DNA of 63,853 nucleotides, filler included, from Reclinomonas americana ATCC 50394 (lineage: Eukaryota): the NCBI GenBank assembly GCA_048213135.1. It is 20 parts of 20 records of this genome, joined end to end, with 100 filler letters (N's around TTAATTAATTAA, not from the genome) between each part and the next. Parts side by side here need not be neighbours in the genome. Positions count along the whole stretch, not along the records: positions 62,329 to 63,853 come from AFZH01024293.1; 19 more parts are not named here. One strand, written 5' to 3'. The notes beneath the pieces are model-generated. The model saw nothing but the letters and a program-made list of their open reading frames with translations. It made no database searches and was not told where the DNA came from. The position numbers and the translations under genes were made by a program. Shown in pieces: positions 3,834 to 63,853 of the stretch (position 1 is its first letter; every line of letters begins with the position of its first letter).

Positions 3834-6800
3834 TCACGCGATGATCACAGAAACACTGCGCAACTCAATGGCCACGGTATTCTCGCTGGCATACAGCAGT
3901 CGTTCACGCATGACCTCCTCCGACGTGTACGCTGGGAGAGAATCAGAGGTGGCAATGAGAAAAAACACAGGGGGGAGAAAGAGGGGACAGGAAGGCTGAA
4001 ACTCTGCGCACCGGGAAGCATCAATTGGAAGAAGCACGTTGAACTCGTCGGCAGGCGCTCGTTTGGATCCTGGGCACGCACACATGCAACAGTGACCATC
4101 ACCCGCAGCAGTGGGGAAGAACTGACAGGCACCGGTACACATACCACACCAGGCTCCAGGTTGGACCGGCAAATGACTAGGTTTTCACGGAAGTCCGAGT
4201 CTGCGCACAGACATGTGTCATGCAGTCNNNNNNNNNNNNNNNNNNNNNNNNNNNNNNNNNNNNNNNNNNNNTTAATTAATTAANNNNNNNNNNNNNNNNN
4301 NNNNNNNNNNNNNNNNNNNNNNNNNNNAGCAGGCCGACAAACATCAGATCGGTGCCAATCAGCGACAATGACTGATTGCCAGTGAAAAATTTTTGAGTAC
4401 AGCACACAGTGTTTGAGAGAGCGAAAGAGCGCGCACGGAACTTCACGATACAAGCCGCCACCATCGAAACCACCTTCGCCAAGGAATTCTGCCGTCCACG
4501 CACGATCGTTGCTCCGTAGTCGGAATGCCTGCCGAACCACACACACACACACACACACACATATTGGCACACGTACGCATGACGGGCAGGCACGAGCAGC
4601 AACAGAGGCGCACCGGAAGCGGATGCAGCCGGCGGTACGCTTGCATGAAAATGCAATCACGACTGTACTCTCGAATTTGCTCTGCACTGGCGTTCGGCGA
4701 CAGTGGTATCTGCACGTGCGGTTGCAAACACAAAACAACATCAGCGACGGTGAAGATGGTGTACGTTCAGCAATGACACAGACCCTTCGGCGCAATCGCA
4801 ATGTCGGATGCGCAAAGCGCTCCGTGTCCTCCAACGACTCCTGCAGCAGGGCGTCCTTGGCGATCGGGTCGAGGAACGACCGGAGAGCGACAACTCGAGA
4901 AGCCAGCGAGTTTGGCGAGTGGCGTTCCTGCGCGAGGAAAATATATATAATCAGTCGTAAGCCAGCCAACCAGCATTTTGCCGCCTCACCTTGAAATCGA
5001 TGGCACCCAGACAGTCTCCCACGGTAGTGTGCAGTGCGCAAATGATGACAAATCGAATCCCTATGCGCACGAAAAAACAACATGTGGGTGTGCGGCCGCA
5101 CCACGCACACAACAGACACACTGAAGCACGCAACGCAAGTCGTACGGGGATCGATACTTGAGCGTCTCAAACATGCCGACCTCGTGCTTGTTTGGTGAAA
5201 ACTGCGACACTGGAAGTTCCATGACTGCACCGCGCACACGCACACACATTATTCCTGCATGAACGCAGTAGCAAACGCACACACACACACACATAAAAGT
5301 GGCGCGCACCGTTGCCGACTCCGTCGGTGCGCTTCGCTACCACTTGCATCAAAGAAAGCAAGTCTCGGTCGGCCTCCTCTGTCCACGACGGTGCGTCCTC
5401 CACAAAACGGGAGAACAGTTCAAACCGGAATTGCTCTTCGGCGTTGAGTGCCTTGGGCTCTGCGAGAAGCCAAGGAATGAATTCACAATGAGCGCTGCAG
5501 GCTGCAGCAAACTCGACAACGCAACTGGGCGCAGACGATGCCTTGCCTGCACCACCGCGCTTGCGCGGCGGTGCAACTTCCACTGCCGCCGATGATCCAC
5601 CGCTGCACGTGAGTGACCAATGAGACAAAGAGCAGTATGGAGAAAACGTGAGCGGTGCGGCGACCAACGAAACACATTGGGAAGTGGCACCGTGGACGTG
5701 GAGGAAGACGAGACCGGCGGAGCGTACATGGGCTCGCGAGAGACCTCGAACTGCGACGCCGTAATGTTGTTCACAATCAAGAACTCGGCCACCAGCCGAG
5801 CGTTGCGTGGCGTGCGGTCGGGACCGAGCAGGACCTCGGAGAGGTGCCACAACGAATCCATGGATGCCAGCAAATCGCCCAGATCGCTACTCGACATGTC
5901 CCACACCAGTGGATATATATCCTTCCGCCACAGCTCACACGAGGGACTGTTCAAATCCACAACTCGTCCACTGTCGGTGGTTACCTCGTGCGGCAAGAAC
6001 AATCGCAGCAGCAGCATCACGACAGCGAAGACCTGCATGGCAGTGTTGAGCAGAAAGAGAGAGAGAGAGAGAGCGCAAGCAAGAACAGAACGAACGACAA
6101 CCAACCTTGCGTGCCGGACGGTGCTGGAACATGGACACATCGAACGACGACATGTCTTGCACTCGCATCAACGTTGTCTGCACGCCCTTCCACACAGAGA
6201 CGGCACGGGCGGCGGGAGGCAGTCGCTCGCGATTCTCCAACAGTTGTTTCAGGATGGTGAGTATGGAGGACACTTGCACGGTTTGCGGCTTCAGGAAAAG
6301 AATCGGGAAGCCACGCAGAAGCTTGACAAAGGCACTCCACAGCTGTAAATCCGAGCGCGCAATGAGTGACGCAACGAAAAGAAGAAGAAGATGATGACTG
6401 TGTACGCTACCGAAGGCGACATGAACGACCAGAGTAGCTGGTCGGTGACGTGCTCATCCTGCAACATGGCACCGAGGACGGCGCGAATCACTTGCAGGCC
6501 GGCAGAGTGCCCAGCACTGGCATCAGCCAATACGCTGGCGATGCGCCGACCCTTGGTATCACCACGCGACCAGTCCGCGGCTGCCTTCAAGGCCGCGGAC
6601 AGCGACTCGACGCCCGCATCGTGGAGGCCCACCAATATGTCCTGCAGCAACCCCTGTCGAGACACACCGCGAGAAAGCTTCAGAAAAGTGTGTCACCAGC
6701 TGCGGCGTCAGAGATCGCAGCACACACCTGCTCGCCAGCGGTGCGCAGCAGCGATTCTACTGTCTGCAGAATGGACTGAGTCCCCACACTTGGCGCGCAG

Positions 6801-14519: not shown

Positions 14520-15502
14520 ACAGATGAGCTCTGGCACTGGCACTCGCTCCGTGGAGATCACGCACCGCTTTGTGCAATCGTTCCCGGCGATTCCCACTGT
14601 GCTCTTTGGCATCTCCGCTCTCTCCAATACGATTGAGGGCGACACTGACATTCGCTGCGCGAGGCCGTCGGTCACCAAGTTTATGCTGACGGTACAGTGC
14701 TCGGCACTCGGCACTGCGCAGTTCGACTCGCCCATTACCAGTTTCGTGAGATCGATTAAGTTTTCGTGCACACTTGCATGAAACTCACGAGCTACGTCGC
14801 AGATTTCATCGCCATGTACGCGGACTCTGCAGCGACGTACACACACGACAACGAATTGCCGCGTCAGAAAGCTGCCAATGAGTGGCTGAGCCTGGCCACC
14901 GACAAGAATTTCACCAAGGTTTGTTGATGCAAACAGACCTGTGCATGGTCCCTGGACTCATTCATCGCAACTACGCGGCTGTGTGTGCAGGAGGTGGTGA
15001 ATGCCCACGCGTTTGGGTTTGATGAAATCCCTCGATTGCGCTGGCGCTGACGGGCGTGTGGTCCATTCGACTCCATCCGAGTGGCACGGCACGCAGCGAC
15101 AACTTTGAGGTGGCTGTCGGTGAGGCGGCCGCTGCTACCTCGCAGGTGTTGATGACGGTGCGCGGCGATAGTCGCGTGCAGGCGTTGGAGCTGCGTTCCA
15201 TGCTGGTGGGATCGCGGCTGGTGCCGCGTGACAATTCCAGTGGCTACGTGATGGTTTCGGGCGGTGAGTTTGTCTGCGAAGATTTGCAGGCAGTTGTGCA
15301 CGATTACTGACATGGATCACCATCATGTTGCACAGAGAGCACGCTGGTGGGCAACACACCGGTGGTGGTCACCCTCATCAGCCGTCAGTCAACCCGCGGG
15401 TTGAAACAGACTGATTTCCACACCGCCGCATTCTTGCGCGGATGGAAGGCGACCGGCACTGGTGCATCGCAGGTCAATCCGGAGTGGAGCGTACGGGCAG
15501 CT
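14520..15502 (+). CDS. Partial multi-exon protein, possibly with H-type-lectin-like beta repeats
   Basis: Exon SVEITHRFVQSFPAIPTVLFGISALSNTIEGDTDIRCARPSVTKFMLTV resembles the H-type lectin pattern F..PF...P.V..G...L; GT-AG introns. Confidence 0.35.
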
Positions 15503-15699
15503 NNNNNNNNNNNNNNNNNNNNNNNNNNNNNNNNNNNNNNNNNNNNTTAATTAATTAANNNNNNNNNNNNNNNNNNNNNNNNNNNNNNNNNNNNNNNNNN
15601 NNAACACGAGTAGCCTGCGCGAGAGCATCGCTGATTGATTGTGCAGGACTTGTTGCAATCGATGATCGACGTTCTCAGCTGCTGTTTTGTTTACTCCTA

Positions 15700-16530
15700 T
15701 TATTGTTGAGGCTGCGCAGCTGGTGGTTGTGGTGGCCGCAGAGGTCTCTGCTGCTCTGACGACGGCACATGACCAAAGATCGGCTCCTCGTACCGATCAT
15801 GCGCAAACTGCAACGGAGCCAGGTGTCGCACCATGAGATCCGCATGCTGCGCCGACAGTCGATAGTCGCCTACAACTCGCTAGAGTAATACAAGTCAGCA
15901 CGCGCGCGTCCACGTGGAGCACACAACAACGAAGCAAAGAACACCTGCAAGCTGTACGCGACTGGATCCTTCGCGCGTGCACTCAGCAGCCGCGACAGCT
16001 GCACATCAGAGATGCGACCTACAGGCTACCTCGGCGCGCATACACCCACGTCAGGCAACACGCTCACACGCCAGACAAAGCAAGGCACAGACCACTCCGG
16101 GCGTCACAGTCTCCACGCGCCCACGCAATGCCTCTCTGCGCACTCGTGCATTCTCCATGACTCGATCGTAGGCGAACTCGGGCTTGGCAGCCGCCACAGA
16201 CGACGACGCATCCTGCAGTCAGTGAGCGACAGTGTGTGTGTGCGCGTGCGCAAGAGTGGAGGTCCGCACCATTGACTGAATGCTACTCGACAAGCGCTTC
16301 AACACATCATCAAAGCGCTGCCTCTCCTCCGCCGATGGCACCTGCGCGCTATCAATGGCCTCCTGGAGCATGCGACGTTGCGCCCAGTCGCGCTCACGCA
16401 GCTTCATTGTGGCCTCGTGTTGCGCCTGTGCCGCCGATTGGTCCACTGTCACGCCTGCCTCGACGGACTTGGCGCGCGCTACAGTGTCGCTGGTGGTGGC
16501 GCCGAGTGTGCGGGATGCGCGGCCGCCCAT
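15700..16530 (-). CDS. NDUFAF4-like (complex I assembly factor-like) protein, multi-exon
   Basis: MG start (myristoylation-type). Spliced C-terminal GRISDVQLSRLLSARAKDPVAYSLQ/RVVGDYRLSAQHADLMVRHLAP resembles the NDUFAF4 C-terminal helical motif. Confidence 0.45.
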
Positions 16531-55683: not shown

Positions 55684-58394
55684 CTACTGGTGGTGCGCGT
55701 GCGACTGCCGCCTCTGCTGCTGCGCCACGTGGTGCATGAGGAAGCGGTAGGCATCGCGTGGTCTCCGCGTGGCCGGTGACACGCGCAGCAGTCGCAGCAC
55801 AATCAAAATCGAGAAGCCGAGATACGAGGCCAGCCCGAGGTAGGCGTACGAAAAGTTGCCGTGGAAGACCTTTTCCACCAGCAGCAGCATGGCTGTGCAG
55901 CGGAGAGATGAGCGAAGGGCGAGACAGAGGGAAGAGGCGACTTGTAACACACCGATTTGCAAGTACGATGTGACGGCCAGCGTGCAGTTGGTAATGCCGG
56001 TGAGTCGACCAAAGGCCGTTGTCGGGAATCTGCGCAACATCCCGTGTGAGCACACGCAGGCTATGTGGATGTCGCGGTTATGTGACGTAACAGATCGGCA
56101 ATGTACGCCGTGAAAATGGCCGAGTACTGGCCACGCACGAGGATGAGGAAGAAAATGGCGGCGTACATCAAGTACGGCACAATGTTGGCGGCCGCCACGC
56201 AGAGGCAGTGGCAGATGCCGAGGAGGAGGATGCTGATGAGGGTGGCGCCCATGCCGAATTGTTTCAGGGTCCACTCGGCTAAAGAGGGGAAGGAGGGGGT
56301 GAGGGGAAAGGGAAGGGGAAGGGAAAGAGAGAGACAAATAGTGCCAAGGCAAGGAGGTGGACAGTGAAAACCAGATGACCATGAGTGTAGGGCAGACTGA
56401 AGGTGAGAAGGAAACGGCGACAGACATGAGGACTAGATGACCAAGCGCGCCATGTGAAGGTGGTGACGGCTGGACCATGATGGAAGTGAGAACGTGAAAC
56501 GGAAGGCGAGAGTGAGAAAACGGACGAGATGACGACTTGAGACGATGATGGGAAAGAAAATGAAGGATCGAGAGGGGAGAAAAGGTGAAGGAAACTGAGA
56601 GGGAAGAGTGGGAGAGGAACGAAGAATGAGGGGAGAGGAAGAGGGAGAGAGAGAGTGAGAGGCAGAATGGGAGAGAGAGAGGCGGAATTGGAGGAAAACT
56701 GAGAGGCGAAGACGAAGGATAAGAGTGAACTAAGCAAGCTGTTGGCGTGAGAGAACATAGGCAACAATACAGTTACAACGCCCTCACTTCTATGCCCCGT
56801 ATCTTCTCATTGTCTCTTTCTCTCTCGCGGCATTCTCCACATTCTGTTTCGCATTCTCTTCTCCTTCTTTCTCTGTCCCCTCTCCGCCACGCAACAAATG
56901 ATGACACTAAACGCCGTGGTCGGATAAACAATCGAGAACACAAAGAGAAACACCGTGGCCTGCTCCGGCGTGCCGACCGAATTAAAGCTGCACCACGAAT
57001 GTGTTAGCGTCCATCAACACAAGGCGAAGGAAAGGGAGGACAAAGGCGGAAGACAGAGAAAGGTAACAGAGCAAAGAGAGTCCCACACACCTTGCGGTGG
57101 GGAAGGACAGAGAGGAAGAGAAGAGGCAAACACACAATTACAGCCCCATCACCCGCTGCGCGACTGAGAGGAGGAGAAAGAGAAAGGACGAAAGCACGTT
57201 GAGAGCCCACACATAGTTCGCTTGTCACACGAGAGAGAGGAGATGGAGAGAGCGAGAGAAACACGAGAGCCCCCCTTCATCCTGCGTGAGTTATGAGTCG
57301 AGGGGAAGACAGAGGAGGAAGAGAAGAGAGAAGACGACAACAGACTAATCGTATGTCATGCGAGTTCAGAATGGCGGGGAGGACAGAGGAGGGAGAGAGG
57401 AGAGAAGACTGAGCGTGAGTAACGCGAGCTATGAATGGTGTGGGAGGACAAGGGAGAGAGAAATTAAACCGACAGCAGTCAGAGACCTGCGCATCCTGCC
57501 TAAGTCGAGAAGGGAGGGCAGGGGACAAACATTCACTAAAGACAAGAGCACGCGTAGAGCCCACACATCCTGCGTGAGTCAAGACGGGGGGACAAGAGAG
57601 AAAGAGACGAACAGCGACAGCAGATTAAGAGCCCTACACATCCTCACGAGTCGTGCAGGATGCGAAGAGAACGAGAGACAGTGCGAGAGCATGAATCCTT
57701 TCATCTGCGCGAGCCAAGAAGAGTGGCAGCGATGAATGAGAACGAAAGAGACGAGAGTTGACTGCGGGCCCCTCAGATCTGTCCGCATTGAGCAAGAGCG
57801 AAAGATCTAGATTCTCCTTCCATCCCACCCCGTCGCTTCTTCTCCCCACGCCGCCCCCTTCCCCTTCTTCCCCGCACCCCTCCCCTTCCCCTTCTCTTGG
57901 TACCCAGGGACTCACATGAGCGTGGCATTGCCGACGAAGAAATGCGTGAGAATGGAGATGCCCATCGAGAACATGATGAGCGTGAAAAAGTCGTATGACA
58001 TGAAGTTTTGGCAGAGAGTGAAGGTTTGGCCCGGCGTCTCAATCTGCAGCAAGGAAATGAGCAAAGAGTCCTCAATCAATTGTTGAGAACAATACTCACC
58101 ACGCCAGAGTGCTTCAGGTGCCACGAGGTCAGATTGCTGAGCGCCAGCGACTTGGAAATGAGTAGTCTGCGCAGCTCCACCATATTCTTCACGTCCTCAT
58201 TGACGGTGGCGCCTGGCAGGTTGCCCGCCTCCACATCATCATCGTCGTCATCGATATCAGAGTCCGAGTCGTGCGTGGGACCCGAAATCTGCTCCAGCAA
58301 GCTCGGCCGGCGCCGGTCATCCTTGCTGATCAGCGACTCGCCGTGTTGATCGTCGCCGTCGTCGGCGTGCCCGTCGTTCTCATAGGCCGCGGCA
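55684..58394 (-). CDS. Eukaryotic MFS transporter (SLC43/FMP42-like), multi-exon, 5'-partial
   Basis: Multiple hydrophobic exons; YSAIFTAYIAD..FPTTAFGRLTG; acidic central loop. Confidence 0.55.
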
Positions 58395-58644
58395 NNNNNN
58401 NNNNNNNNNNNNNNNNNNNNNNNNNNNNNNNNNNNNNNTTAATTAATTAANNNNNNNNNNNNNNNNNNNNNNNNNNNNNNNNNNNNNNNNNNNNGAGGAT
58501 TGCTATCGCGACCTGCGTCCTCGCTCCGGGTGACGTGAGAATGGGGCGCGCTTGGCAACCAGTAATTGAATCTTGCGCTGGAAGCGCTTGACGCTGCAGT
58601 GACTTGAGAAGAGTCTAGCAACCGAATCCAGACAACGGCAAAGC

Positions 58645-60553
58645 ATGACGGTGCATACCCAGGTTCCAGTTGTCGCGATTGAGGATGAGAAAGCGGCCGA
58701 GTTCGCCGATATCCTGCGCGAGCAGGTTCGCGAAAGGGCCGAAAGCGAACCGGGCGAGGGGATAGTTCTCGATGCGCACTTGCTCGCCGTGTCGATGGAT
58801 TATCTCGAAGACCAGGGCGGCGTTGCGACCGACGTCGGCGAAGGAGCGGTCGGCGCCGACGATTTCGTCCGAATGCCTTTCAAGGCCAAGATCAAGAACA
58901 CGAATGTCCTGATCCTCGGCTATCTACCAATCGGCTCGGACGGCCAGCTTACGCTGTTCACCGCCCGCTACGGCGACGATCCGGCCGACCGCACCCTGAG
59001 CGTCGGCGAGTTCCGGAGCAGGATCGAACAGGCGCGCAGGTTCTTCATCCTGGCCTACAACGAGCCCGACCTGTTCGCCGACCATGCGCAGGTTCGTCCG
59101 CTCGTCGACCACATCACCGATCAGGGCGACCGGATTTCCGAACTCCGCATCGTCTTCGTGACCAACCTGAAGCTGGGCACCAGCAAGTACGACCGCGAAG
59201 TCAGCCTCGGCGACATCGACGTCGTCTATGACGTCTACGACGTCGAGCGCCTGCACAAGCTGTCGGACGAAACGTTCAGCGCCTCCGACATCGTCGTCGA
59301 CTTCAACGAGGTCCTGAAGAGGCCCGTGCCGTGCCTGGAAGCGACGGGCCGGGACGAGCCCTATAAGAGCTACCTGCTCATCCTGGACGGGACGACTATC
59401 CACTGGCTGTTCAAGAGGTATGGGCCCAGGCTCTACGACACGAACCTCCGTTCCTATCTCGACAACAAGACGAAGGTGAACAAGGACATCATCAAGACGG
59501 CGAGGGAGCAGCCCGACCGCTTCCTCGCCTACAACAACGGGCTGACGGCGACCGCGCAGGAGATCGAGGTCTCGACCTACCACGGCCAGCCCAGCATCTC
59601 GCGCATCGTCGGCCTACAGATCGTCAACGGGGCCCAGACGACCGGTTCGATATTCAAGGCCATCGAGGGGCTGCCGAAGAGCAAGCGCGGCGAGGTGGAC
59701 CTGTCCCAGCTCTCTGTCTCGGTGAAACTGACCAAGGTCACCGGCGACGACCTGAAGGAGTTCGTCCCGCGCATCACGCGCTATGCCAACACCCAGAACC
59801 CGATCCAGGCCGCCGACCTCGAAGCGAACGAGGAGCTCCACCGGCGCCTGGAGCAGCTCGCCAACGAGTCCTGGACGCCGGGAACGTCGACGCGCTGGTT
59901 CTACGAGCGGACCCGCGGATCGTATCAGGCCGCCATGAACCGCGAGGGAACGACACCCAAGCGAAAGGCCGACTTCAAGGCTCAGATCCCCAAGGAGCAG
60001 CGCCTCGGGAAGACGGACCTCGCGAGGTTCTGGATGTCGTGGAACCGCCATCCGCACCTGGTCAGCAAGGGTGCCCAGAAGAACTTCGACGCCTTCAAGA
60101 AGATGGTGTCTGATCCGTCCGGCGGCATCCCGATGGAGAAGGTCGACGAAAAGTTCTTCCGGGACGTCGTGTCGATGGCGATCCTTTTCCGCGCCGCCAG
60201 CGCCGCGGTGACGTCGGCGGGGATCGGCGGCGGCATCGGCTCGATGGTGAAGGCCTACGTCACGTCCTACCTCGCCTACCGCCTCGGCGAACGTATCAAC
60301 CTGGATATGGTCTGGCAGAACCAGGACGTCTCCGACGCCATGAAGGCGCTTCTCGACAAGTGGACGCCGCTCGTCCTGGAGCGGATGAAGCTGAATGCCG
60401 GCGACCACACGACCGAGTGGTTCAAGAAGGAGAACTGCTGGCTCGACGTTCAGGGGCTCGAAGCCGCACTACCGACCCCGCTTCCGCCGGAATGCGGCGT
60501 CCCGGAGGCACCCAAGACGTCGCCCGCGGCAGCCACCGAGCCCAAAGCAGCGG
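58645..60553 (+). CDS. AIPR (abortive infection phage resistance) family protein, long form, 3'-partial
   Basis: NLRSYL, FLAYNNGLTATA, LQIVNGAQTT, YANTQN, WFYERTRGSY, PHLVSKGAQKNF. Confidence 0.92.
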
Positions 60554-60653
60554 NNNNNNNNNNNNNNNNNNNNNNNNNNNNNNNNNNNNNNNNNNNNTTA
60601 ATTAATTAANNNNNNNNNNNNNNNNNNNNNNNNNNNNNNNNNNNNNNNNNNNN

Positions 60654-61172
60654 CTTGTTCGCTTGCAGCGACACCTCGACATCCTGCCGCCCGATCAGGC
60701 TTCCGAGATGCAGCTTGGCCTTGGCGATCCTGTCGTCCTCCCCGGTCAGCAGGACGCGGATGACCTCCGCCGGCGGCGTGTAGACGCCGGCCGCCGGCTT
60801 CACCGGGTAAGTGACCGGCGACATCTTCAGGTTCGTCGCGTCGGAGGTCCTCGTGGCGCCCAGGATCAGCACCTCGGCCTGCAGGTAGTCGCGGGTGGTA
60901 GACAAGACGGTATCGAGAAGACTGGTGTCCTGCTCCGCCAGTTCCTGGGCGGCCTCGGCCGGGAAGAACGGGTTCACCCGGTTGATCGAGGTGACGCGTC
61001 CCCAGATGATCGCACCGTAATTGCCTTCGTGCCCCGGTACGTCGGTCGGCGTGGCGACTATATCGCCGAGCTTGGCACCGTAGCTTTTCAGTATGAAGCC
61101 GTAGGTGTCGGTCGAGGCGTCGCCCACGACGGTCCCGATCCTGCGGTCCTTGTTCTTGATCCAGTCGGCCAT
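60654..61172 (-). CDS. HerA-like ATPase N-terminus (HAS barrel), 3'-partial
   Basis: IGTVVG, WGRVTSINRVNPFFP, P..P...VY, LHLGSL; directly downstream of a NurA gene; truncated before Walker A. Confidence 0.75.
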
Positions 61173-61187
61173 TGTCGTTCCCGGAAA

Positions 61188-62228
61188 TCAGAGCTTGGGG
61201 CGGTAGAGCCAGTCACGGCCGGTGGCGGAGAGCATTCTGACCGCATAGTCCCGGACCTTCGGATCGTCGGTGGCGAAGGCCTTCCGGAGCAGGTTCACCT
61301 TGTGGCCGGTCGCGATCTGCCGACCCATCCAGTTAGGCACCTTCGCGAACCTGTCGACGACGTCGAGCCCGACCGGGAAGGCATAGCGCGGCAGCAGCCT
61401 GCTGGTGTGAAGAACGAGCGACAGGAGATCCTCGACCGCCGTGCCCTCGAACGTCTCGACCCGCAGGGGCTGGGCGCGCTCGGAAGGCTTGACGAAGGAG
61501 GTCAGGGCGAGAGGAAACCGCTCGATCCAGGTCTTCCAGTCGGCCGGCCACTTGTTCTGTTCGTTCCGGTCACCCTGCCGGTTCACCGGGATCGGCACTA
61601 CGTATTCGCCTTCCAGAAGGATGAGGTCGAGCAGCTGGGTGTCGGAAAGCCCGTAGCGCTTCAGGAACTTCTCCGTCTTCACCCGCCGTGCGTTGTCGAG
61701 TTTCCCGCGCTCGATCATGCGGTCGAGGATGTTCTTGATGAACCGCCGGCCGCCGCCATCCCTCTCGACAACACCGGCGACCGTCGTTCCTGACTGCTTC
61801 ATCCGTTCGAGGATTTCGAGATAGAGCGGAATGAAGTGCCGTTCCTTCTCGGCGTGACCCGTTCGACCCGACAGCTTCCTGGCCTTATCGGACGTGTATG
61901 CTGGGAAGCCCGGTGTACCGTACGGAGAGACCGGATTGATGAGCGGTCCCTGCACCAGAAGTGCGTCGAGTTCGGTGCGTTCGAGGATGCTGCGGCAGGC
62001 GCCTGCCTCCGCGATGATGCGGGCGGCGTCTCGCAGCTTGGTGACGTCCTCGAAGACGTCATCGTAGATGTCCTGGGAAGGATCGTAGAGATCGTCCACC
62101 ATGTGCATGTCGATGGCGAACTCTTCCCGCTTCTCGTCCTCCGTTTCCTCGACGCCGGGACGGACAAGGTAGGAGCCGACACGGACCGCGAGAGGCGCGG
62201 CTCCGGGAAGTGCCACGTTCGCGACGCC
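61188..62228 (-). CDS. NurA-domain nuclease, 5'-partial
   Basis: KLRDAARIIAE, LLVQGPL, VAGVVER, D..LL..IL.EGEY, PLRVE, YAFPVGLDVVDRFAKV. Confidence 0.75.
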   Translation of the reverse strand, partial: GVANVALPGAAPLAVRVGSYLVRPGVEETEDEKREEFAIDMHMVDDLYDPSQDIYDDVFEDVTKLRDAARIIAEAGACRSILERTELDALLVQGPLINPVSPYGTPGFPAYTSDKARKLSGRTGHAEKERHFIPLYLEILERMKQSGTTVAGVVERDGGGRRFIKNILDRMIERGKLDNARRVKTEKFLKRYGLSDTQLLDLILLEGEYVVPIPVNRQGDRNEQNKWPADWKTWIERFPLALTSFVKPSERAQPLRVETFEGTAVEDLLSLVLHTSRLLPRYAFPVGLDVVDRFAKVPNWMGRQIATGHKVNLLRKAFATDDPKVRDYAVRMLSATGRDWLYRPKL

Positions 62229-62328
62229 NNNNNNNNNNNNNNNNNNNNNNNNNNNNNNNNNNNNNNNNNNNNTTAATTAATTAANNNNNNNNNNNNNNNN
62301 NNNNNNNNNNNNNNNNNNNNNNNNNNNN

Positions 62329-62483
62329 AAGACGAGGCCGCTCTCATGCGGCTCCTTGGTGTGTTGACGGAAGCGCAGGTCCACACGGTGCGCGCCCTCG
62401 TCGAAACGCTCAACAAGCAGCACTGGGGTGTCGAGGTCGCACGTGTTCGTCGTCGATCCACGTCCGATGGGGCTGGCTCATAG
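62329..62483 (+). CDS. 3' end of an unknown bacterial ORF
   Basis: Open frame DEAALMRLLGVLTEAQVHTVRALVETLNKQHW...GAGS* from the contig edge. Confidence 0.45.
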
Positions 62484-62787
62484 TCCAGAGCGCAGAGCGG
62501 AGGCAGCGCTGCCGTGACACTGTTGCGTTAAAAGCACGCCCCGCCATGAATTGCTTCTAGTCTGACAACGCCTGACTATAACGATGATGATAGATCGTGA
62601 GAGCCGCGTTTGCCGCTCGCCTTGCGTCCGGCTGTGCAGTCCTACCCGCCATCTTTGCAACCGGGTTCAAAAATCCTTCGCTCGTGAATGCACGCAGCGA
62701 ACGCATTGGCTCATGCTTCCTTGCTGAATTCATTGAGCTTTCTTCCGCTCACACCGTCACTGCAAGCGCACGACGTAAAAACAGACA

Positions 62788-63030
62788 GCTACTCGCTTGG
62801 GTGGCGTAGCAGGCTTCGCGCTCAAATTTTGCACCCAGGTGCAAAAGGCGCTGCACGGTTCGGTCGGCTCCCCGGCCGGACGGGGAGGTTAGCGCCCCTA
62901 ACGAGCCTACTAGGCCGGCTTTTGCAGCCGCTCTTGTTCCCTCAACAACCCGCTTGCACGCCGCCGTGAACCGATGTTCCTCGTGAGCATCAAGCGGGTG
63001 TCGTGTGGCAGCCGCGCTTCTCCGAGCAAG
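62788..63030 (+). ncRNA. Candidate structured RNA directly upstream of the reverse transcriptase
   Basis: Dense stems: 62788-92/62806-10, 62827-34/62839-46, 62868-74/62881-87, 62888-92/62898-902, 62916-20/62926-30, 62948-56/62991-99. Confidence 0.6.
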
Positions 63031-63038
63031 GGAATGGT

Positions 63039-63853
63039 ATGGCGGATAACGAGAGCGAAACGGTAGAAAGGGCACGCGTCCAGGTCAGTAAGATGCGCAA
63101 GCGCATCCGAGAGGCGATCGAGGCGGGGCGCACATACGACGCCAAGGACCTTGCCCGAAAACTGTTCCGCTCCCATGCCGTGAAGGTAGTGGCTTGCCAC
63201 GAAGCGCTGGCGAGCCGGTCGGCGTATGAACGCGGCAGGCTGCCGAGCTTGGATACGCTTGTCAGCCGCATCGGAGATTTCGAGGGCGACGATCAGGCAG
63301 TTCGGGTCATCCGGCAGCCCAAGGGCGGCGGGCGGTTCCGGGACACGTTCGACTACGCAGTCCTCGACCGGGCGAGACAGCAATGGGTGAAGCTGAGCGT
63401 CGAATTGCTGACGCGCCCTCACCCGAACCAATCCGGCGTCACTGGCTCCGGTCCCGCGGCGATTATGGACCGCATCCGGGAACTCGTGAAGTCCGGCACA
63501 TACCGTTACGCAGCAGAGTTCGACATCAAGAACTGCTTCCAGAGCATCCAGAACGTGGATGCGATCAGGGCGGAGTGGAACCTGCCGAACTGGGCGATCC
63601 AGAAGATCGTGACCCTCAAGGAAAAAGGAGGACAAGGGACTGATCATCGACAGGAAGGGAAGGGCTCCCACGAGCTCGTCTTCTTCTATGGGGACTTTGA
63701 CGACGCGGGGCCTTCCGCAGGGAGCGTCCACCTCTCCGCTCTTCGCCTACAGCTTGAACCGGCCGGTGCTGGAGGCTTTGGAGCGCGAGCACGGGCACGA
63801 GGCCGTGGTGTTCAATCACTGCGACAACTTCCTCGTCCTGGGCATTTCACGGG
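63039..63853 (+). CDS. Group II-like reverse transcriptase, 3'-partial, +1 frameshift at an A5 run (63622-63626)
   Basis: AAGGGA SD and ATG 63039. RVT_N-like VSKMRKRIREAIEAG...LARKLFRSHAVKVVA; IRQPKGGGRFR; HPNQSG; AEFDIKNCFQSI; GLPQGASTSP (63709-); HCDNFLV (63817-63828). Confidence 0.88.
   Translation, partial: MADNESETVERARVQVSKMRKRIREAIEAGRTYDAKDLARKLFRSHAVKVVACHEALASRSAYERGRLPSLDTLVSRIGDFEGDDQAVRVIRQPKGGGRFRDTFDYAVLDRARQQWVKLSVELLTRPHPNQSGVTGSGPAAIMDRIRELVKSGTYRYAAEFDIKNCFQSIQNVDAIRAEWNLPNWAIQKIVTLKEKGGQGTDHRQEGKGSHELVFFYGDFDDAGPSAGSVHLSALRLQLEPAGAGGFGARARARGRGVQSLRQLPRPGHFT

Follow-up and report, generated by a model that had tools for sequence, protein, structure and literature searches.

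The last contig piece of a 63,853-nt stretch of DNA from the Reclinomonas americana ATCC 50394 assembly GCA_048213135.1 (hereafter, the window) carries the 5' part of a gene for a reverse transcriptase (RT). This enzyme is a free-standing group II intron-like (G2L) RT, as assigned by sequence and fold matches to solved structures. Its catalytic motif, HCDN, has asparagine where YxDD has the second aspartate, a state that defines a rare "DN" subtype. The evidence supports an uncharacterised DN-type G2L RT that is linked to integrases. By analogy with the G2L4 RT, we consider it on balance probable that the enzyme is a repressor-controlled, still-active polymerase that would not depend on a dedicated RNA from the neighbouring DNA. 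An initial annotation of this DNA had instead proposed that the RT is preceded by a structured noncoding RNA (ncRNA) of ~250 nt.

The window contains 40 runs of N, each of 44 bases, which form 20 linkers of the structure N44-TTAATTAATTAA-N44 (the first at positions 4228-4327, the last at 62229-62328) and chain ~21 contig pieces. It is a pseudo-molecule of unrelated contigs, and gene neighbourhoods that span linkers are artificial; adjacency across assembly linkers should not be taken as synteny. Because the window was built from joined contigs, the genes before 62228, which include those for a NurA-domain protein and an AIPR protein, are uninformative on the RT, and the last piece (62329-63853) is the sole stretch that belongs with it. 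This piece is identical to part of a 274-kb metagenome contig, L003, except for a single A at 63622-63626 (plus strand), where comparison showed A5 in the window vs A4 in L003, causing a +1 frameshift in the window copy. The A4 form was also found in a contig from an RNA library of an independent run (X7), which matched L003 4049-6500 with 0 differences. Since both of these sequences have A4, the frameshift in the window copy is read as an assembly or strain artefact.

Read across the frameshift, the RT gene occupies 63039-63853 on the plus strand, where its 5' 58% (residues 1 to ~271 of 470) matches P0003, the intact 470-aa product of L003, at 100%. Its ATG at 63039, with the Shine-Dalgarno sequence AAGGGA 5 nt upstream (63028-63033, plus strand), was present as initially described; the equivalent sequence is GAAGGA in L002, the orthologous locus of Bosea sp. 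CS1GBMeth4. The N-terminal part of the RT includes an RVT_N-like N-terminus, PK..G..R, motif A with D162 (63522-63524) and LPQG. The motifs PKGGG, FDIKNCF and GLPQGASTSP had been assigned to the open reading frame (ORF) starting at 63039. All three are encoded and FDIKNCF is in the frame of this ATG, but GLPQGASTSP lies in the +1 frame. The same is true of motif C, identified from the sequence and alignment as HCDN in place of YxDD (63817-63828, plus strand).

To classify the RT, P0003 was compared with protein families and solved structures. At E≤0.1, Pfam returned RVT_1 (9.2e-9), a sub-threshold RVT_N match (9.1e-4), a weak DeaD_dimer match and nothing else; in particular, no GIIM or HNH domain was found. 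The group II RT/maturase model TIGR04416 matched with 1e-15 and 57.8 bits, the cut-off of this model being 300 bits. No PADLOC RT model exceeded 39 bits, and the best class models, RT_UG17 (35.4 bits, 1.3e-9) and RT_UG4 (28.8 bits), both scored below the generic RT model (38.7 bits). Retron RT models gave E values of at least 0.0077 for P0003 (RT_VI) and of at least 0.0011 for its relative P0005 (RT_II-A). The TIGR04416 and PADLOC scores agree with the earlier proposal that the RT is of an uncharacterised class. When a profile of the 20-member family was compared with solved structures, the top match was the group II maturase T.el4h (6me0_C, 8.5e-31), which extended from the N-terminus through the thumb, followed by Cas6-RT-Cas1 and then GsI-IIC RT (3.6e-16), while G2L4 (9d4s) reached merely 3e-7. 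An AlphaFold model of the RT (pLDDT 86.7, pTM 0.79) was best matched in Foldseek by the G2L4 RT (9d4s, 3.9e-14), 6me0_C and GsI-IIC RT; the top 10 matches were all G2L4 or group II RTs, and the match to 6me0 had a TM score of 0.57-0.64. These matches confirm the initial assignment of a free-standing group II-like RT.

Group II intron RTs are the closest relatives of this RT in sequence and fold, as might be expected if its gene were the ORF of a group II intron, whether ordinary or decayed, lying amid degenerate ribozyme domains. Rfam, however, gave 0 matches at E≤1 in window 58000-63853 and no group II intron family at E≤0.1 in 7/7 DN loci (L003 and six others); there was no Intron_gpII or D1-D4 match in any of these sequences, whereas control introns were recovered in L014 (RF00029, 55.8 bits) and L011 (RF02012). 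This result supports the initial description of the RT as stand-alone. The downstream DNA, which was recovered via L003, has a convergent integrase gene whose stop codon overlaps that of the RT by 4 nt, an arrangement common to the Bosea clade, and this overlap leaves domains V and VI no space. Synteny of the RT and its flanks between two islands, the absence of a GUGYG-type 5' end from the initial annotation and the lack of Pfam GIIM and HNH domains also argue against an intron. The group II intron reading is largely refuted, and we regard it as hardly credible. With respect to other RT-containing systems, the Pfam matches of neighbours within ~5 kb in L003, L021 and L017-L020 included no Cas domain. 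When the 11.4 kb of L003 were searched for direct repeats of ≥30 nt, one weak family of 66-72% identity was found, which did not resemble the template repeat/variable repeat pairs of diversity-generating retroelements.

The C-terminal region of the protein, residues ~430-470 of P0003 (L003 ~6290-6410), consists of a short motif and then a helix, which follow a low-confidence linker (residues 429-442, pLDDT <50). The motif, P-x-G/S-F-x-[IV]-R, is common to the RT clade (alignment A2 columns ~575-600) and is present in two copies in the 510-aa proteins P0004 and P0005. This pattern suggests a peptide that docks onto some partner. No fused long relative was found among proteins of 1009-2880 aa, which is weak evidence of a difference from the N-terminally extended G2L5 group.

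To determine how widespread the altered motif C is, 1.84 billion representative proteins (50% clustering) were searched with the first 197 residues of the RT, which yielded 169 matches at E≤0.001 and 32 at E≤1e-10. Because this query ended before motif C, an excess of DN sequences was not built into the search. An alignment and tree of 132 RTs combined the matches of 340-600 aa with five locus RTs and, as outgroups, two introns; shorter and longer matches and P0001, P0002, P0007, P0103 and P0132 were left out, and two of the locus RTs are duplicates of P0022 and P0147. DN was found in 101 of these RTs and DD in 30 (including the 2 outgroups), with one other state, and at least 8 switches between D and N fell on well-supported branches of the tree. 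In alignment A2, D262 and N263 were invariant in 20/20 sequences, down to 23-30% identity. A DD-to-DN change was noted earlier, in 2008, for the G2L5 group (accessible text of PMC2602772). Relative to that single case, the DN-bearing set is far larger, at 101/132 relatives.

In RTs, the conserved lysine and arginine bind the dNTP triphosphate, the aspartates bind metals, and an aromatic residue gates out the 2'-OH. Each of these positions was near-invariant in the 132 RTs: K95 in 131, R101 in 132, D162 in 132, an aromatic residue (F/Y167) in 132 and D262 in 131. Because of this conservation, we infer that the DN RT still polymerises dNTPs, with an altered ligand for the second metal. The alternation of D and N on the tree suggests that both states may be functional. 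If the DN enzymes are active, they would widen the notion of a working RT active site and point to a new island-borne RT function.

It is also conceivable that the protein is a catalytically dead, RT-like nucleic-acid binder, serving as an integrase directionality or targeting factor or as an RNA chaperone. Consistent with this idea, asparagine replaces the second catalytic aspartate, from which the same conclusion was drawn for G2L5 by Simon and Zimmerly (accessible text of PMC2602772), and an integrase lies within ~1.1 kb in 7/8 loci, with overlapping stops in the Bosea clade. However, K95, R101, D162, aromatic 167 and D262 are each present in 131-132 of 132 sequences, a degree of conservation not easily accounted for unless the protein binds nucleotides and is catalytic, and the repeated D/N switches also speak against a dead enzyme. 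Two kinds of integrase (DUF6538-type and Arm-DNA-bind_3/P4-type) adjoin the RT, which argues against a specific partnership. A dead RT thus appears quite unlikely.

The region upstream of the RT was the basis for the proposed ncRNA. The spacer between the XRE-family repressor gene and the RT gene, defined by its position between the two, is 554 nt long in the window (62485-63038, plus strand) and 555 nt long in L003. All of the stems listed for it were found (62788/62806, 62827/62839, 62868/62881, 62888/62898, 62916/62926, 62948/62991 and 62811/62902, the last of which pairs with one bulge). To assess their significance, the 251 nt upstream of the ATG were compared with 200 dinucleotide shuffles. 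The description of this region as "almost entirely pairable" was not borne out, as its paired fraction equalled that of the shuffles (0.67 vs 0.65 +/- 0.03, reached by 45/200). At 63% G+C, pairability is a property of base composition, and hairpin density in such DNA is no evidence for an ncRNA. Local perfect hairpins numbered 4 vs 2.3 +/- 1.3 (reached by 34/200 shuffles), and the longest perfect stem was 9 bp vs 6.9 +/- 0.9 (reached by 9/200). The minimum free energy (MFE) was -113.2 vs -102.3 +/- 5.0 kcal/mol, for a z score of -2.17, with 6/200 shuffles as good; the minus strand gave z -1.41. The fold in the window is therefore marginally above chance. In seven family loci, the 250 nt that precede the RT had sense-strand z scores of -2.21, -0.48, -1.29, -0.15, -0.50, -2.34 and -0.37. 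A terminator candidate at 62916-62930 was rejected, with 1 site found vs 1.1 expected.

Conservation of the fold was examined using the orthologous spacer of L002. Expressed as a share of the longer sequence, nucleotide identity between the window and L002 was 0.79 for the RT gene, 0.74 for the integrase gene, 0.59 for the XRE gene and 0.52 for the spacer; shuffled spacers gave 0.465 +/- 0.018. No other part of the locus is as poorly conserved as the spacer, which is fast-evolving. The L002 spacer folded with z -0.07. On an anchored global alignment of the two spacers, L002 kept 16/39 of the pairs listed in the initial annotation, with 2 compensatory changes, and 33/84 of the MFE pairs, with 1 compensatory change, while controls with partners slid by 1-3 columns kept 21-29. 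Two of the listed stems, 62868/62881 and 62888/62898, lie inside an insertion that is absent from L002. RNAalifold reported 13 "compensatory" pairs on the two spacers, which are meaningless because MAFFT had misaligned a palindrome.

These data bear directly on the proposal of an RT-ncRNA system, according to which a structured RNA is transcribed from the ~250 nt preceding the ATG and is bound by the RT as a scaffold or template in anti-phage defence, as in retrons, DRT2 or DRT9. In its favour are the z scores of the window fold (-2.17 on the sense and -1.41 on the antisense strand), the 9-bp stem, which exceeds those of 191/200 shuffles, the long upstream spacer in every family locus and the defence-type cargo of both islands. 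Against it stand the ortholog z score, the loss of most listed pairs in L002, a spacer identity near that of shuffled sequence and mostly weak z scores in the seven family loci, together with the absence of any Rfam match and the PADLOC RT scores of ≤39 bits. We found neither a conserved structure nor, by Rfam, a known RNA motif in this region, and we judge an RT-ncRNA system to be unlikely.

A regulatory region with a 5' leader, rather than a conserved ncRNA, is the best reading of the spacer. Its conserved parts are the Shine-Dalgarno region, a 23-nt block and the palindrome TGCACCCnGGTGCA. Two copies of the palindrome (consensus TTTGCAMCCnGGTKCAAA) are present in each of the two loci. In the window, copy 1 (TTTGCAACCGGGTTCAAAA, 62653-62673) has 2 mismatches to TGCACCCNGGTGCA, and copy 2 (TTTTGCACCCAGGTGCAAAAG, 62827-62847), neither being assigned a strand, had been the best hairpin of the initial annotation. 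Copy 2 is the sole listed stem with a core conserved in L002, where it forms a perfect 14-nt palindrome (5834-5847); one of the L002 copies is located at 4495, ~100 nt upstream of a second helix-turn-helix (HTH) gene. Because the 14-nt palindrome is repeated and adjoins HTH genes, the copies are best read as putative operator-like DNA elements. The 23-nt block (CGAGCCTACTAGGCCGGCTTTTG, 62902-62924, plus strand) aligned with CGAGCATATAGGCGGTCGTTTG of L002. In each locus it precedes the ATG by ~115 nt, and it may be a promoter or leader element. ORFs in the spacer were not conserved; those of 93 aa in the window and 92 aa in L002 shared no similarity.

Sequences from RNA libraries were also compared with this region. 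Run X7 gave a single 5,080-nt contig that spanned all of L003 4000-6500 and is possibly DNA. Runs X17, X18 and X19 yielded five pieces of 151-231 nt at a depth of 3-4, lacking information on start, end, strand and abundance, which covered the XRE gene, L003 4495-4725 in the spacer and 4889-5043. A repeated motif resembling CTATAA..TTATAG was seen at L003 3943-3988, upstream of the XRE gene, and again in the spacer at window 62575-62593, where it adjoins the sole sigma-70-like site (62562-62591).

The RT gene is part of the conserved backbone of a genomic island, which is inserted at tRNA-Ala and has variable cargo. The last contig piece begins inside the XRE-family HTH repressor gene, whose 3' end occupies 62329-62484 (plus strand, stop TAG at 62482-62484) and shows no difference from L003 4291-4445. 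In L003, the complete gene (4041-4445) encodes 134 aa, with matches to Pfam HTH_3 (3.8e-16) and PADLOC capH (7.1e-9). In L003, the gene order is Vsr, a DrmMII-like cytosine methylase, a serine recombinase, a 263-aa protein, XRE, spacer, RT, integrase and tRNA-Ala. The integrase is a tyrosine integrase of 571 aa (DUF6538 and Phage_integrase) that is convergent to the RT. The island of Bosea sp. CS1GBMeth4 (L002/L021) has a 238-aa protein, an extra HTH gene, XRE, a 454-nt spacer, RT and integrase, and adjoins another tRNA-Ala. Identity between L003 and L002 was 69% for the 263/238-aa protein, 49% for XRE and 74% for the integrase. No att repeats of the tRNA end were found within the DNA compared around the island.

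The cargo differs between the two islands. L003 7-1553 encodes the Vsr endonuclease and the cytosine methylase, which matched the DISARM DrmMII model at 2.2e-81; the rest of a possible DISARM system would lie outside the stretch of L003 that was analysed. At the position of this cargo, L021 has instead a 578-aa protein (14603-16336) with DUF3427 and a PADLOC UzuA match (5.9e-20). In L001, from a Bosea metagenome-assembled genome, unrelated DNA (5159-6108) has taken the place of the XRE-spacer region and of the first half of the RT gene. Two proteins are encoded there, one of 276 aa and one of 440 aa, the latter an HTH protein with an HExxH motif. The integrase gene remains, and the RT is dispensable for retention of the island in place.

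Proximity to an integrase was also seen for distant DN-type RTs. A tyrosine integrase was located ≤~1.1 kb from the RT in 7/8 DN-type loci with enough flanking sequence, representing 5/6 independent lineages; L005 was left out of this count, having too little flank. The distant DN loci L004, L017, L018 and L019 have an Arm-DNA-bind_3-type integrase 365 to 1030 nt from the RT, and L020 is without one. L017 and L018 each have an ORF of ~207 aa between the integrase and RT genes, and the two ORFs are not similar in sequence. The VDN-motif locus L012/L020 has an integrase-free neighbourhood, yet L012 549-898 lies ~300 nt from two tRNA genes.

The DN RT family is rare. It was found in 2/111 genomes in a sample of the genus Bosea, in 1/301 in a family-level sample and, at E≤1e-25, in 1/401 in a class sample, where no genome other than G001 matched. 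An order sample gave matches in 6/401 genomes, five with xDN RTs (G001 included) and one with only YADD introns, and a phylum sample also gave matches in 6/401, all of which apart from G001 had only YADD introns. A scan of genome contigs revealed 2 loci, one of them with a 5'-truncated RT, and a metagenome scan revealed 3, namely two distant loci besides the one that is identical to the window. Viral contigs yielded 0 loci for the RT. Plasmids gave one ~26%-identical match, annotated as a group II intron RT (ltrA), and phages gave one unannotated match of ~26%.

To our knowledge, no group II-like RT except G2L4 has a known function. Both the G2L4 RT and the present enzyme are free-standing, group II-like, similar in size, devoid of intron RNA and altered in YxDD, and G2L4 was the top Foldseek match. 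Nevertheless, G2L4 has YIDD with both aspartates rather than HCDN, the sequence match was just 3e-7, and the accessible text on G2L4 states no integrase-linked island context. According to the accessible text of one report, the G2L4 RT functions in DNA repair without a dedicated ncRNA (bioRxiv 10.1101/2022.03.14.484287), and by analogy a repair role may be proposed for this RT. G2L5 is likewise group II-like, lacks intron RNA and has a conserved DD-to-DN change in domain 5, but it is described as having an N-terminal extension of ~500 aa and occurring in Planctomycetes (accessible text of PMC2602772). Here, the protein is 470 aa in total, its RT domain starts near residue 10, leaving no such extension, and it comes from Alphaproteobacteria, so that this description sets it apart. 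Among group II-like RTs, it belongs to a DN-type branch that is uncharacterised. In the accessible parts of the literature, no integrase-linked DN RT family is described, and the clade may be named in the supplementary trees or tables of classification papers.

The T.el4h group II RT/maturase (6me0) was the best sequence match of the RT (8.5e-31), with which it shares an RVT_N-like N-terminus, palm and thumb. It differs from group II RT/maturases in the lack of ribozyme domains and of a GIIM or endonuclease domain, in HCDN vs YADD and in its TIGR04416 score of 57.8 bits, which is below the 300-bit cut-off. Retrons, DRT2/UG2 and DRT9/UG28 are similar in that they, too, have one RT gene, carried on a mobile island and preceded by a long noncoding stretch. 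They are distinguished from the present system by its PADLOC scores (≤39 bits), the lack of any Rfam retron or RNA match, the unconserved upstream fold and the DN motif.

The explanation that we favour, a still-active polymerase under repressor control, builds on the gene's identity, the DN motif, the synteny, the absence of intron RNA and the lack of conservation of the proposed fold, all of which were observed. The XRE-type repressor of the island would bind the putative operator palindromes and keep the RT off until a signal is received. The RT would then polymerise dNTPs despite HCDN, and, like the G2L4 RT, it would need no dedicated neighbouring RNA. It would act on cellular or invading nucleic acids, with a putative role in defence or repair for the island.

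Several points weigh against this explanation. The fold in the window was somewhat better than chance (z -2.17), with a stem of 9 bp in only 9/200 shuffles, and L019 (z -2.34) is a second family locus with a low z score. Sequence of 300-570 nt is present ahead of the RT in 7/7 family loci, providing room for an RNA element, and the RNAs of DRT2 and DRT9 sit just 5' of their RT genes. Solved complexes of RT and ncRNA are known for DRT2 (9c0i) and for retrons. Only two orthologous spacers were compared (window/L003 and L002), and a fast co-evolving ncRNA could escape such a comparison. A promoter scan found one weak site in the window (62562-62591) and none in L002, and thus no convincing promoter. 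Adjacency to an integrase could merely reflect a cargo hotspot. Finally, the DD-to-DN change in G2L5 was taken by Simon and Zimmerly as a loss of polymerase activity (accessible text of PMC2602772). A further alternative, for which we see a slim chance, is that the DN RTs are active and have a conserved, repressor-controlled function beside the integrase of tRNA-targeting islands, in which they could carry out RNA- or DNA-templated synthesis for maintenance, transfer or defence, with the fast-evolving 5' leader as a lineage-specific RNA partner. If this is true, an RT and a tyrosine recombinase would be paired in a bacterial system.

Two other pieces of the window encode proteins of possible interest in their own right. 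An AIPR abortive-infection protein (Pfam AIPR 2.6e-79, AIPR_N 5.7e-18) is encoded on the plus strand of a short piece, at 58645-60553, and is cut by a linker. On the minus strand of a separate piece (60654-62228), a 188-aa ORF without a Pfam match is followed by a gene for a NurA-domain protein (61188-62216, Pfam NurA 7.7e-6), and this piece may encode a component of a nuclease-type defence module.

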